A stretch of DNA of 37,784 bases from a virus (Duplodnaviria > Caudoviricetes): positions 1 to 37,784 of the IMG/VR virus record IMGVR_UViG_3300037045_000081; one strand, given 5' to 3'. Position 1 is the first letter of the stretch. Every line of letters begins with the position of its first letter. The notes under the pieces are model-generated. The model searched no databases. It was given only the letters and a program-made list of their open reading frames with translations, and was not told where the DNA came from. Made by a program: the position numbers and the translations under genes. Below, in pieces: positions 13,398-37,760 of this stretch.

Positions 13398-13447
13398 CCG
13401 GCCTAGACGCCCTGGTTTACAGGCGAAATACAGGCGGAAAATGAGCA

Positions 13448-13780
13448 ATGCCAGGAGAACGGACCAGATTCAAGCCGGGCCAATCGGGAAACCCCGCAGG
13501 GAAACCGAAAGGGGCGATTTCCTTGTCAGCCCAGCTACGCAAGGCCCTAAAGAAGACCGTCCAGACCAAGGACGGAACGAAGCTGAAGACATACGACGCG
13601 ATAGTGACCAAGGCCATCCAGGCAGCCCTCCAGGGAGACACGGCCATGATGCGCTTAATATTCGACCGAGTAGACGGCCGGGTCAAAGACCTAGAATTCG
13701 AACCAGGCGGGCCAACGGAGGCGGAGCAAATCGAAAACGACAAGCATATTTTGTCCCAGCTTTTAGGGGATGAGGAATGA
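13448..13780 (+). CDS. terS: Terminase small subunit (DUF5681-like)
   Basis: RFKPGQSGNPAGKPKG..A.QGD..IFDRVDGR; directly upstream of TerL. Confidence 0.8.
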   Translation: MPGERTRFKPGQSGNPAGKPKGAISLSAQLRKALKKTVQTKDGTKLKTYDAIVTKAIQAALQGDTAMMRLIFDRVDGRVKDLEFEPGGPTEAEQIENDKHILSQLLGDEE

Positions 13781-18909: not shown

Positions 18910-20091
18910 ATGGCAACCGCGAACGTATTGACCTACGCGGAGATTTTCCAATCCAGCCTTGACCAGCAATTCCTCGAGGTATCCACCACCGCATGGATGG
19001 AGGCGAACGCTTCCCGCGTCCGCTACAACGGGGGAAATAAGGTCCAGATTCCCAAGGTATCCGTTGAGGGCCTGGGAAATTATTCGAGATCCAGCGGCTT
19101 TCCCGACGGAGCCGCTACCCTTTCCTGGGAGGAACGCACACTCACCCAGGACCGTGGAAAGGAATTCAATCTTGACGCCCAGGACTACGACGAAACCAAT
19201 TTCGTCCTTGGAGCCGGAACCATCCTGGGAGAATTCCAACGGCTGAAGGTAGTACCCGAGGTCGACGCGTACCGATATTCCAAGATTTTCCAGCTTGCCA
19301 ATCAGCAGCTGAAAACCGCGTCCTACACCCCCGCCACCGGAACCATTTTCGCGCAGCTGAAGAACGATATCAAAACGATCCAGGACGTAATCGGAGAATC
19401 CGAGCCCCTGGTCATTGCCATATCCCACGCCGCCGCGAATATTCTGGACCAGTCCAGCGAGATCGAAAAGCACGTTTCCGTCGACGAATTCACCAATGGG
19501 GAATATAAGACCAAGGTTCGAGCCCTGGACGGGATTCCCATGTTCCGCGTTCCCAGCGCCCGCCTGAAATCCGACTTCACATTCAGCGCAACCAACGGAT
19601 TCACCCCCACCGCCGTGGCCATGGGGATAAACTGGATCATTGCAGCCAGGAGCGCCCTGATCGCGGTCGTGAAGACGGACAAGATCCGGATTTTCGACCC
19701 CGCCGCGAATCAGGATATGGACGCATGGAAAATCCAATATCGCAAGTACCATGACCTGTGGATCATGGACAACGCATTCGAAACGATCGTCGTTTCCTAT
19801 ACCGCGATCGAGGCGCCAGCCCTTACCGCGACCGTCGCCAAGGGAGCCGTCGCCGGAACCAAATTCACCGCCACCGCAGGAACCGGAAACAGCCTGGCTT
19901 ACAAGCTGACTGCCGGAGATGTAGCGGCGCCCAAATTTAACGATGTACCGACCGGCCTCACCGCATACACGTCCGGGGCCGACATTGCGACCGCAGTCGC
20001 AACCAACCGCCTGCATATGTACGTCCTCGACGCGACCGGCCACGTATTGAAATACGCCGTCGCAACCCTGACTTCGGGCGAAATAGTGTAA
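18910..20091 (+). CDS. Major capsid protein with C-terminal Ig-like extension
   Basis: YNGGNKVQIPK, LTQDRG.EF.LD..D.DETN, VVPEVDAYRYSK, YRKYHDLWI. Confidence 0.92.
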   Translation: MATANVLTYAEIFQSSLDQQFLEVSTTAWMEANASRVRYNGGNKVQIPKVSVEGLGNYSRSSGFPDGAATLSWEERTLTQDRGKEFNLDAQDYDETNFVLGAGTILGEFQRLKVVPEVDAYRYSKIFQLANQQLKTASYTPATGTIFAQLKNDIKTIQDVIGESEPLVIAISHAAANILDQSSEIEKHVSVDEFTNGEYKTKVRALDGIPMFRVPSARLKSDFTFSATNGFTPTAVAMGINWIIAARSALIAVVKTDKIRIFDPAANQDMDAWKIQYRKYHDLWIMDNAFETIVVSYTAIEAPALTATVAKGAVAGTKFTATAGTGNSLAYKLTAGDVAAPKFNDVPTGLTAYTSGADIATAVATNRLHMYVLDATGHVLKYAVATLTSGEIV

Positions 20092-31969: not shown

Positions 31970-32302
31970 ATGAACATAACACTAAACCTGGCAGCCATCG
32001 GGCAGATCCTCGCCATAGTAACCGCCATCGGGGCGATATGGGCAACACAGCACCAAAGGAGGCTCATAGCCGTGAAGGAAGGAGAACGCAACGCAGAGAT
32101 GAAAGCCCTTCAAGAGAAAATCAAAGCCCAGGAGGGAACCATTAAAGGACTAGAGGACAAGATCCACAAGACGGACGTCGACCTGGGCAAAATGAATCAA
32201 AAGATCGATATGCAAACCGAGATCCTCCAAGAGATCAAGGACAGGATCGACAAGATAGCACCGCCCACGGTTCACCCGCAGGCCAGGGAGGCGCGGAATT
32301 GA
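31970..32302 (+). CDS. Holin-like protein (one TM plus coiled coil)
   Basis: N-terminal hydrophobic helix; adjacent to the endolysin. Confidence 0.6.
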   Translation: MNITLNLAAIGQILAIVTAIGAIWATQHQRRLIAVKEGERNAEMKALQEKIKAQEGTIKGLEDKIHKTDVDLGKMNQKIDMQTEILQEIKDRIDKIAPPTVHPQAREARN

Positions 32303-32787
32303 GCACAAAGATCGACGACCTGGCCGAGCCCTTCCGGGCCAAGGCGAAAGCGTTTTACGAAGCCATTAGCCAGGACCCCAGGCTAAAGGACCTGGGAGCG
32401 GCCGGTTTTATAGTCCTGGAGACCAGGCGGAAGGAAGAGACCCAGGCAGCCTATTTCGCCCGCCTCCTGGCCAGCTGCGCGCCCGCGAAGTACCGGAAGC
32501 AAGCCATCCTATTCGTCCAGGCCGTTTACAAAATGGCCGGGCTTTACGAGGTCCCCGCGACCGAAGCCCTGAAGCCCGTGACCTGGACCATGCAGAGCCG
32601 TCACCTAGAGGGCCTAGCCTTGGATATATGGCCATCGAGGGACGGAAAGCGGATATGGTGGGCCCCGCCCACATGGGCCGGATGGGCCCGCATGGCCGAG
32701 ATCGCCAAGGACCACGGCATCGAAGCCGGATATACATGGGCAGGGGATGAGCAAGATCCTCCCCATTTTCAGGAGGCACGAAATTGA
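32299..32787 (+). CDS. Endolysin, M15-family zinc peptidase
   Basis: ET.R..E.Q, SRHLEGLALD (SxHxxGxAxD), DPPHFQ. Confidence 0.88.
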   Translation: MSTKIDDLAEPFRAKAKAFYEAISQDPRLKDLGAAGFIVLETRRKEETQAAYFARLLASCAPAKYRKQAILFVQAVYKMAGLYEVPATEALKPVTWTMQSRHLEGLALDIWPSRDGKRIWWAPPTWAGWARMAEIAKDHGIEAGYTWAGDEQDPPHFQEARN

Positions 32788-33038
32788 AATTCCAGCCACT
32801 AACCAAGGCCGCGACATACTGGTCGGCACTTTTTAGCATCCTGGCTATATTCTTCGCCACCCTAGCCCTTGACCAGGAAGGCGCCCAGCTAATCGCAAAA
32901 ACTATAGTCGCCGCGATTATAACCCTATCAGGGATATCCCAGGGGCTCAACGTAGCCAACAACGTCCAGCGATCCGCCCTATATAAGCCAGAGTTAGACA
33001 AGGAGAAAGACTCAAATGCTAAAACCAGCAGCCGTTGA
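32784..33038 (+). CDS. Holin (two TM helices)
   Basis: Two hydrophobic helices, charged C-terminus; TTGA overlap with the endolysin. Confidence 0.7.
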
Positions 33039-36369: not shown

Positions 36370-36567
36370 ATGGACACGAGCGGATTTTACAAGTACCAGG
36401 ACGGGCAGCTATTTTTCGGCCCGAATTTCGTCGAATCGAAAGCCTACAGCCTCCGGAGGGAGAATAGGGAAAGCCTAGCCCTCCCCATAGACGGCTGGCA
36501 TTGGTTCGATTCCAGGGAGGAGGCCCTGGCCTATTTCGGGATCGAGGATCCCGAGGGGACACGATGA
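36370..36567 (+). CDS. Small protein, possible fibre chaperone
   Basis: AAGGAGG RBS; GFYK..GPNFV..PIDGW.WFDS.EEA. Confidence 0.7.
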   Translation: MDTSGFYKYQDGQLFFGPNFVESKAYSLRRENRESLALPIDGWHWFDSREEALAYFGIEDPEGTR

Positions 36568-36992
36568 ATGCAGCAACGAAAGCGGCGATTTTTATTCTAT
36601 GCCTTTTTATTGTCGGCGGTGGCGGCTTTTTCGCAGGCTATCGATACGGATATCCCGCAGGCTATACCGCCGGGGACACCGCCGGCAGAGCAGCAGAGCG
36701 CCGAACAATGGCCGAATCAGCCCGCGCCGATTCCATTAAATTTAGCCTCGAGCTTGAGAGAATTATCGGCCAAGCTAAGGAGCGAAGCGGCCGGATGGAG
36801 GACGGAATCAGGGGAGCTATTGAAGCTGGTCGAGGTATTGCAGGCATCATTGAGCGAGGCGGAAGCAGAGCGGACGTCCTTGACGCAATCGCTGGACAGC
36901 TTGACGGCCTGGCAAGCGCAATCGAGCGCAGCGCACGCCCAGGAAATAGCGGCTATCCGATCCGCCCTGGAGGCCGAAATAGCGAGGATTGA
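36564..36992 (+). CDS. i-spanin-like protein (N-terminal TM plus helical domain)
   Basis: ATGA overlap; AAIFILCLFIVGGGGFFAG TM segment. Confidence 0.55.
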   Translation: MNAATKAAIFILCLFIVGGGGFFAGYRYGYPAGYTAGDTAGRAAERRTMAESARADSIKFSLELERIIGQAKERSGRMEDGIRGAIEAGRGIAGIIERGGSRADVLDAIAGQLDGLASAIERSARPGNSGYPIRPGGRNSED

Positions 36993-37104
36993 AGGAGAGA
37001 GGATCCAGGCCCTGAAGGCCGCCCAGGCATGGAAGGCGGCCGCATTGATCGCAGGCGGGATCGCAGCCGGATCCCTTTTCCATATTATTACCCGAAAACC
37101 GTAA
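36568..37104 (+). CDS. Overprinted spanin-like protein (signal peptide, coiled coil, C-terminal TM)
   Basis: MQQRKRRFLFYAFLLSAVAAFSQA; heptads; WKAAALIAGGIAAGSLF. Confidence 0.6.
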   Translation: MQQRKRRFLFYAFLLSAVAAFSQAIDTDIPQAIPPGTPPAEQQSAEQWPNQPAPIPLNLASSLRELSAKLRSEAAGWRTESGELLKLVEVLQASLSEAEAERTSLTQSLDSLTAWQAQSSAAHAQEIAAIRSALEAEIARIEGERIQALKAAQAWKAAALIAGGIAAGSLFHIITRKP

Positions 37105-37136
37105 TTTCCGGACTATTTCCGGACTATTTCCGGACT
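37104..37136. repeat. Three perfect 11-bp tandem repeats ATTTCCGGACT
   Basis: Copies at 37104, 37115 and 37126. Confidence 0.9.
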
Positions 37137-37151
37137 ATAAAAAAAAAACAC

Positions 37152-37179
37152 AAAAAACCGCAGAAAATGCGGTTTTTTT
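37152..37179. terminator. Bidirectional terminator ending the late operon
   Basis: AAAAAACCGCA-GAAAA-TGCGGTTTTTT. Confidence 0.85.
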
Positions 37180-37190
37180 ATCTCACCCCA

Positions 37191-37220
37191 TTGACTCAAA
37201 ACCCAACGATAGGATATTAT
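37191..37220 (+). promoter_or_regulatory. sigma70 promoter with operator in the spacer
   Basis: TTGACT(37191-96)-18 bp-TATTAT(37215-20); ACCCAAC|GATAGGA at 37201-14. Confidence 0.75.
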
Positions 37221-37243: not shown

Positions 37244-37552
37244 ATGCAAAACAAAGACGACATTTCCAACGAGATCCTCGCGGAGAATAAATTCTACCGC
37301 CTGGACAAGATGACCAGCACCCGCCCACTAAGCGGCGGAGTGTCATATTTCATCCTTTCCAAGGATCAGCTTGACGACTTCGGGCTCCCAGAAACCATCG
37401 TCCAGATAAACAACGAAGAGGACGGCGAGGCGAAGGCCACGGGAATTTTCAAGACCATGACCGACACCGCCGAAGTCCGCGAAAAGGTCAAGAAACAAAT
37501 CCGGGAAATCCGGGAAAGAGTAACGGCTGAACACATGGCAGCCACGGCCTAA
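37244..37552 (+). CDS. Small acidic early protein
   Basis: GGGAGG RBS directly behind the promoter. Confidence 0.8.
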   Translation: MQNKDDISNEILAENKFYRLDKMTSTRPLSGGVSYFILSKDQLDDFGLPETIVQINNEEDGEAKATGIFKTMTDTAEVREKVKKQIREIRERVTAEHMAATA

Positions 37553-37592
37553 ATAAAACCGGCCCCGCCTAGCGGGGCCAAAGGGAGAAACC

Positions 37593-37760
37593 ATGACCAA
37601 AGAGATCCGAGAGATTGAGAAGAAAATACAGCAGATCCAGGCCAAAAGGCGAGAGCTTTACCAAGCCGGAGACATCGCAGGATGCGACGCCCTGGCGGAC
37701 CAGGAAGCGAACCTTTCCGAGGACCTAGATATTGCATTTAATTCCATGCAGAAAAAATAG
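37593..37760 (+). CDS. 55-aa helical early protein (absent from the ORF track)
   Basis: AAGGGAG RBS; MTKEIREIEKKIQQIQAKRRELYQAGDIAGCDALADQEANLSEDLDIAFNSMQKK*. Confidence 0.75.
   Translation: MTKEIREIEKKIQQIQAKRRELYQAGDIAGCDALADQEANLSEDLDIAFNSMQKK

Follow-up and report, generated by a model that had tools for sequence, protein, structure and literature searches.

A candidate lipoprotein-free, spanin-like gene pair encoded in overlapping frames of a likely spirochaete phage

Main finding

The stretch of DNA analysed here (the window) is a whole virus record of 37,784 bases, and the end of its late region carries two overlapped genes, A and B, that probably act as a lipoprotein-free two-component spanin analogue, stripping their host, likely a spirochaete, of its outer membrane as phage lysis is completed. 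The novelty lies in a spanin-like pair that lacks the defining lipoprotein; its lysis function is predicted.

Layout of the pair and predicted features of its products

The sequence ATGAATG at 36564-36570 opens both frames. ORF A occupies 36564..36992 on the plus strand (142 aa), and ORF B, which starts 4 bases later in the +1 frame relative to A, occupies 36568..37104 on the same strand (178 aa), giving an overlap of 425 nt when A's stop is counted. A Shine-Dalgarno-like GAGGGG (36553..36558, plus strand) precedes the ATG codons of A and B by 5 nt and 9 nt, respectively. This single site could serve both starts, and similar purine-rich sites precede the paired starts in relatives too. The TGA of a 65-aa upstream gene (36370..36567, plus strand) overlaps A's ATG and abuts B's, so that translational coupling to both is possible; that gene belongs to a widespread viral family (201 matches) that is not specific to the pair. 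Directly after the B stop, at 37104-37136, three head-to-tail copies of the 11-mer ATTTCCGGACT were read by eye, and the tail of the window B is about 14 residues shorter than those of most homologues.

Protein A has a hydrophobic segment at residues 7-25 (nt 36582-36638; mean Kyte-Doolittle 2.23), which contains its lone cysteine, Cys13, and a predicted helical exported part of about 117 residues, and it carries a Gly/aromatic motif, GYRYGYPAGY. Its AlphaFold model is all-helical at low confidence (pLDDT 51). By sequence prediction, A has the i-spanin layout of an N-terminal membrane segment and a helical periplasmic domain. With a Gly+Ala fraction of 0.42 and a single basic residue, A might have acted by signal-anchor release, but this role was rejected because the property is not common to all A proteins (Gly+Ala 0.11 to 0.42).

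Protein B begins with a basic-hydrophobic leader, a predicted signal peptide of residues 1-22 that ends in AFS|Q, a site of the signal-peptidase-I type. A Pro-rich, disordered linker (9 Pro in the 35 residues after the leader) extends to about residue 56 and is followed by a single continuous predicted helix, 57-175, with no strands (model pLDDT 80.8). From Trp155 the tail is Gly/Ala-rich and hydrophobic, ending in a 19-residue uncharged run with a marginal membrane score. B contains no cysteine, and both proteins lack periplasmic cysteines for intermolecular disulfides.

A preliminary description of this DNA had reported the two frames 4 nt apart with their 425-nt overlap, and the coordinates were confirmed on the sequence. 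The signal peptide, Pro-rich linker and hydrophobic C-terminal anchor that it ascribed to B are likewise borne out by these predictions. Its label of "Rz-like" for A holds for topology and not for family, as A has no PHROG or Pfam match. Searches of Pfam and PHROG with the window pair returned only coiled-coil noise such as ATG16, below the cut-off, PDB sequence searches with the A and B profiles gave 0 matches, and the ESM Atlas returned unnamed clusters only (0.91 for B, 0.85 for A).

Evidence for dual coding

B is clearly a gene. Its profile search returned 22 proteins, 21 of which were aligned (the truncated P0013 was left out), and codon randomisation gave P=0.004 for B being open given A. 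The openness of A in the window genome is weak evidence by itself: synonymous shuffling of B gave P=0.067, and among 13 ordinary genes of the window 4 stay free of stops over as great a length in that alternative frame.

Comparison with two relatives, L001 and L002, is more informative. In both, ATGAATG and the two frames are retained, A is again 142 codons long and there are no indels, at a DNA identity of 70.6% between L001 and the window; the third frame contains 10-11 stops. Among codons for the same residue, changes were found in 18/77 (L001) and 21/78 (L002) for the B overlap and in 20/80 and 17/77 for A, against 152/324 and 157/331 in five neighbouring genes. Silent change is thus roughly halved in both frames (Fisher p 0.0002 and 0.001 for the B overlap versus neighbours), the two comparisons not being independent tests because L001 and L002 are closely related to each other. 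At fourfold sites alone, p was 0.06 and 0.14 for B and 0.002 and 0.0005 for A. Outside the overlap, the same-residue codons of B had changed in 12/16 and 9/15 cases, and within it the most conserved codon position is A's second. Because the frames, the starts and A's stop are kept and silent change is halved, we conclude that both frames are under selection, and we predict that both are translated. The dual-frame conservation that had been put forward as a check is found in relatives of about 71% identity.

Contigs from sequencing runs (8 runs, one of which gave nothing) showed no indel in the overlap among the matches listed; among the runs carrying the region, no RNA run is listed. Glu142 of B (column pair Ile141-Glu142) does not vary among the 21 aligned B proteins. 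In the window, A's stop comes from the codon of this residue, which hints that A's end is kept in further homologues.

Phage setting and late-region genes

Judged from its gene content (an integrase at 1165-2448, terminase, SPP1-type portal, capsid, tail genes, M15 endolysin and collagen-like tail fibres), the window reads as a temperate siphophage. In the late region, the M15 endolysin lies between two small membrane-protein genes, followed by the collagen-like tail fibres, the A/B pair and a terminator-like hairpin. The pair is located on the late strand after the tail-fibre genes, 3.5 kb behind the holin candidate and lysis genes.

The endolysin (32299..32787, plus strand) matches PF13539 at E 2.7e-6, above the cut-off, and a PHROG endolysin at E 1.3e-11. 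The gene after it (32784..33038, plus strand) encodes an 84-aa membrane protein without a family match that is a holin candidate; it has tblastn matches in L109, L110 and L114-L117, and its homologues in relatives are placed between the endolysin and the A/B pair. The gene preceding the endolysin (31970..32302, plus strand) encodes a 110-aa N-terminally anchored coiled-coil protein with weak matches, including the Rz-like phrog_739 (E 5e-4). Homologues precede the endolysins of L096, L107 and L109, and the protein is a putative lysis accessory. In the window and in L104-L120, the gene at this position always encodes a small coiled-coil membrane protein, anchored N-terminally in some phages and C-terminally in others (L111, L112, L115, L116), which may be a further lysis factor.

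The hairpin (37152..37178, listed on the minus strand), with A and T runs on its flanks, ends the late gene run after B; its class is weak evidence alone, with 3 sites found against 2.4 expected by chance, and the plus-strand T run was read by eye. Beyond it, a sigma-70-like promoter (37191-37220, 10 of 12) lies upstream of two short ORFs (37244-37760). As the window also opens with short ORFs, the record may be circularly permuted. Two further observations concern other parts of the window. Before the large terminase, two 110-codon ATG ORFs (13441-13773 and 13448-13780) lie in different frames with an offset of 7 nt; PHROG matches exist for the second only, and this is possibly another shadow frame. 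The major capsid protein (18910-20091) has a C-terminal SbsC-type domain (PF18316, E 1.9e-12).

Relatives and host

The host assignment derives from L004, which encodes the same proteins as L001 and L003. L004 is a prophage that runs from the pair into chromosomal genes, and its flank clusters are labelled Spirochaetia, Spirochaetales or Treponema sp.; one flank gene bears the name outer membrane protein assembly factor and has an Omp85 match that narrowly misses the cut-off (E 5.8e-5). By these labels the host of this close relative is diderm. A monoderm host had been named at the outset as an observation that would count against the proposal, and the close relative is instead found in the DNA of diderm Spirochaetia. 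The endolysin and holin candidate of the window are 68-74% identical to those of L001, so the window host is likely a spirochaete as well.

The distant B homologue P0022 (MEL7556621) belongs to a different assembly, where its accession is two and three numbers away from those of the same flank genes. A further homologue, P0019, comes from a 4.9-kb contig labelled Phycisphaerales, possibly through mis-binning; the Phycisphaerales are diderm. Different, unrelated-looking genes follow the pair in close relatives (L001:6861-7835 versus L002:6562-7404), which suggests that the prophage end after the pair is an accessory-gene slot.

Other collections yielded no further relatives. A protein search with A scored 0 of 219 candidates, and a viral scan with A found nothing. 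INPHARED tblastn searches (A, B, P0022, the type-2 B and the M23 endolysin) and PLSDB searches (integrase, type-2 B) gave no match, and GTDB genome scans by protein patterns gave no relative. A GTDB DNA pattern returned 6 loci and one Microviridae-like viral locus; none scored against the A or B profile, and they were taken as chance.

Recurrence of the pair in lysis cassettes

A scan with a related M23 endolysin fetched 17 loci, 14 of them distinct (L104-L106 are near-identical and L116 = L117). Common genes for integrase, tail or lysis proteins tie these phages to the window group. In all 17 (14 distinct), the start of an A/B pair follows the endolysin stop at a distance of 224-603 nt (worked out by hand), and a hydrophobic, holin-like frame of 63-86 aa lies between endolysin and pair in 14 of the 17. 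As background for the pair screen, 5 of 80 loci fetched through the 65-aa gene carried a pair, all five from the same phage group. The endolysins are swapped within the group, M15 in the window (32299-32787) and M23 in L104-L120, with homologous holin candidates and A/B pairs retained.

At three of these loci (L111, L113 and L107) both A and B are homologues of the window proteins, with profile E-values of 6e-9, 6e-8 and 8e-6 for A and of 2e-26, 3e-9 and 2e-19 for B, respectively. Their A proteins measure 114-119 aa versus 142 aa in the window, so both frames have been kept through length changes. In L111 the pair abuts the holin-like gene, and in L113 it lies 230 nt behind the endolysin. The spanin-like character originally proposed is thus supported by homologous pairs directly behind an endolysin and a holin-like gene, and the separated position of the window pair counts against it.

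The pair follows tail-fibre genes in the window, L001, L002, L061 and L096. L096, a close relative that has its endolysin and tail genes in common with the window, carries an overlapped pair of another type at this position, and so does L061; in L089 a third pair type stands directly after an M23 endolysin and a holin-like gene. Outside the membrane segment, profile comparison shows no similarity among the A proteins of the three types (hhalign probability 48% and 1.6%); the layout has therefore either evolved more than once or diverged until a common origin can no longer be seen. The Rz-like PHROG matches of the other A types are weak (E 3e-4 to 8e-3), and the unrelated 110-aa protein encoded before the endolysin scores as well as they do.

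In all 21 pair rows, a count that includes duplicates, B lies in the +1 frame of A, and A always keeps its start, membrane segment and frame; over a third of A lies outside B in L061, L108-L110 and L116. The motif x-x-[AGS]|Q occurs at positions 19-28 of B in 21/21 rows, as against 0/21 A proteins and 17.5% of shuffled B N termini, the pattern having been composed after viewing these proteins. We take the A/B pair to be a recurring, exchangeable lysis-cassette module.

Absence of a lipoprotein signal

Lipoboxes were sought with our own strict and relaxed rule sets rather than SignalP, and 0 of the 21 B proteins in the pair rows passed either. The window B, having no cysteine, cannot be lipidated. 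The earlier statement that the second frame lacks a lipoprotein signal is accordingly upheld, while its "no Cys" component applies to the window B and not to the family: 13 of 20 full-length members have a leader cysteine, nearly always after Phe, and 7, including the window B, have none. Since these 7 lack it, lipidation cannot be required in the family.

On the strand of the pair, a search for lipobox ORFs came back empty for the window, G012 (100% complete) and G008 (94%), and in G010 there is a single strict-lipobox ORF, 1.4 kb upstream of B. The relaxed test is passed by two A proteins (L109, L118). On the late strand of L113, a small strict-lipobox lipoprotein gene (L113:4398-4703) lies upstream of the lysis cassette, and L110 has a small strict-lipobox gene (L110:2356) 3.8 kb upstream of its pair, also on the late strand; both lack a Pfam match and are absent from the window.

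According to one report, more than 90 of Borrelia's lipoproteins are displayed on the surface, eight line the outer membrane on its inner face, and LolB is missing from spirochaetes (PMC11326224). The absence of LolB was considered as a reason for dropping the lipoprotein and judged weak, since the same text notes that alpha-proteobacteria also lack LolB (PMC11326224). It is further weakened by spanins predicted in Leptospira prophages with a lipobox-seeking procedure (PMC8705779).

Proposed mechanism and alternative explanations

In the mechanism that we propose, A would sit in the inner membrane, extend its helical body into the periplasm and take the i-spanin role, while B would be exported, cleaved at AFS|Q and held by its C-terminal hydrophobic tail. 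That tail, being weakly hydrophobic, would escape the inner membrane and engage the outer membrane in place of the o-spanin lipid. The two proteins may form a coiled coil that bridges the periplasm (helix 57-154 of B would measure about 15 nm), and once the endolysin has removed the wall the complex would pull the membranes together and fuse them. The common ribosome site would yield both chains in fixed proportion.

A broader proposal, which we would put at slightly less than even chances, is that spirochaete phages use a third spanin class, whose exported coiled coil, once cleaved, anchors itself in the outer membrane by a Gly-rich C-terminal helix instead of a lipid. The pair would have arisen more than once by +1 overprinting and would serve as an exchangeable module, which would explain how phages lyse diderms that do not sort lipoproteins as E. 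coli does.

The step that places B's tail at the outer membrane invites the main alternative. Scored with a hydrophobicity scale without position terms, the A segment is a firm membrane span in 16/17 proteins, and the B tail is marginal in 10/16 and firm in 6/16; Lys or Arg occurs within the last four residues of 10/16 B proteins and of 7/21 in the window's own B family. As the support for an outer-membrane tail is indirect and basic C termini occur, A (by its N-terminus) and B (by its C-terminus) might both stay in the inner membrane as a lysis accessory that, for example, regulates the holin or destabilises the membrane and never contacts the outer one. For a cleaved protein whose C-terminal tail is hydrophobic, the inner membrane is the default location, the basic C termini and the firm scores agree with this, the lysis-cassette position fits equally, and extra inner-membrane lysis factors have a precedent in Lcc6 of LambdaSo. 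We nevertheless consider this explanation unlikely, because it leaves phages of diderm hosts without a visible outer-membrane factor, the overlapped +1 layout and last-in-cassette position mirror spanins, and long exported rods exceed a regulator's needs.

Two further explanations, equally probable with each other, seem less likely still. B, which is hydrophobic at both ends with one continuous helix between, could be a one-chain spanin that keeps its N-terminal segment as an inner-membrane anchor and sends its tail to the outer membrane, with A as helper or inhibitor; the signal-peptidase-type motif with Gln at +1 in every row, across unrelated types, points instead to cleavage, and A is present in every locus. 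Alternatively, the fact that in the window and four close relatives the pair closes the late run, behind the tail-fibre genes, could indicate a non-lytic role, as a virion or tail-associated protein, in superinfection exclusion or in another membrane function. Against this stand the both-frame homologues in L111 and L113, abutting a holin-like gene and close behind an endolysin, and a secretion signal that is ill-suited to a virion protein; the pair is moreover on the late strand.

Very little probability attaches to B being an atypical spirochaete lipoprotein or the descendant of one, and hence part of an ordinary overlapped spanin. Spirochaete lipoboxes are looser than those of E. coli, leader cysteines are frequent in the B family, and L-F-A-C in P0014 fits a relaxed box by eye, yet seven members have no such cysteine, no row passes the strict or relaxed tests, the hydrophobic stretch continues past the cysteine to the invariant S|Q, and for the window B the idea is already refuted. 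Least probable of all is that only B is a gene and A a by-product of its codon use: long open runs in A's frame are common here, T-rich DNA is hydrophobic in every frame and the protein collection gave no A relative, but silent change in B is halved inside the overlap and not outside it, A's second codon position is the most conserved, A's start, membrane segment and frame persist in every row, with over a third of A beyond B in five loci, and overlapped genes are known to be skipped by gene callers, according to the spanin survey (PMC6139136).

Significance

In that survey, about 13% of the surveyed phages of Gram-negative hosts are without an identifiable spanin, and its authors state that their criteria would miss other anchors, e.g. 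a C-terminally anchored protein (PMC6139136). The A/B pair offers a concrete, clonable candidate for this gap, in a phylum with barely studied phage lysis. If the proposal is true, it would represent a new membrane-fusion device and a possible route for an alpha-helical tail into the outer membrane. It would also provide a searchable signature for genes that callers miss: an N-anchored gene with a +1-frame gene bearing leader|Gln and a hydrophobic tail. The pair is, in addition, a clean case of near-total dual coding in several apparently independent versions.

Comparison with known systems

The preliminary description had suggested an undescribed outer-membrane disruption system. Real overlapping genes, the missing lipoprotein, the diderm host of relatives and the placement of homologous pairs favour this suggestion, in which either protein would reach the outer membrane, bind the other and act in lysis. 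Our literature search, with most subscription journals outside its scope, returned no description of such a lipoprotein-free overlapped pair. Spanins are predicted in Leptospira transposable prophages in one study (PMC8705779), and the word spanin is absent from the available part of a Negativicutes phage survey.

The pair resembles two-component spanins, the overlapped P2 LysB/LysC and the embedded lambda Rz/Rz1, as presented in the spanin survey (PMC6139136): the first gene product is N-terminally anchored and helical, the second gene overlaps it in +1 and extends past it, and, in relatives, the pair comes last in the lysis cassette and the host is diderm. It differs from them in that B has no lipidation, with a cleavable leader, a long helix and a C-terminal hydrophobic tail. 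Moreover, a few bases separate the A and B starts, and the same DNA consequently encodes both membrane-targeting segments, whereas embedded o-spanins usually start at 0.4-0.5 of the i-spanin. Known two-component spanins form disulfides via periplasmic cysteines, which the pair lacks, and the window pair has no sequence match to them. An o-spanin is by definition an outer-membrane lipoprotein with a lipobox cysteine (PMC6139136), and the A/B pair therefore falls outside two-component spanins as defined. As spanins show no bias to the +1 frame in the survey, that frame is a family trait here rather than proof.

With unimolecular spanins such as T1 gp11 (PMC6139136), B has in common an N-terminal export signal and a C-terminal hydrophobic segment; unlike them, it lacks a lipidation signal, is helical and not predicted beta-rich, and always occurs with an overlapping partner. 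In PHROG, phrog_594 aligns with B homologues over their C-terminal coil and tail (P0022 at E 7e-7, L107 at E 2e-6) and phrog_38323 matches type-2 B proteins (E 2e-14 to 2e-9); PHROG 594 and PHROG 38323 carry no function label, and the window B matches neither.

The disruptin gp28 of phiKT (bioRxiv 10.1101/515445) likewise represents a lipoprotein-free route to outer-membrane disruption, as proposed for A/B. Disruptins are single short cationic amphipathic peptides, a description that does not fit A and B at 142 and 178 aa with their export or anchor signals, and where gp28 is one such peptide of 56 aa, A/B pairs would act as two anchored rods of 107-200 aa.
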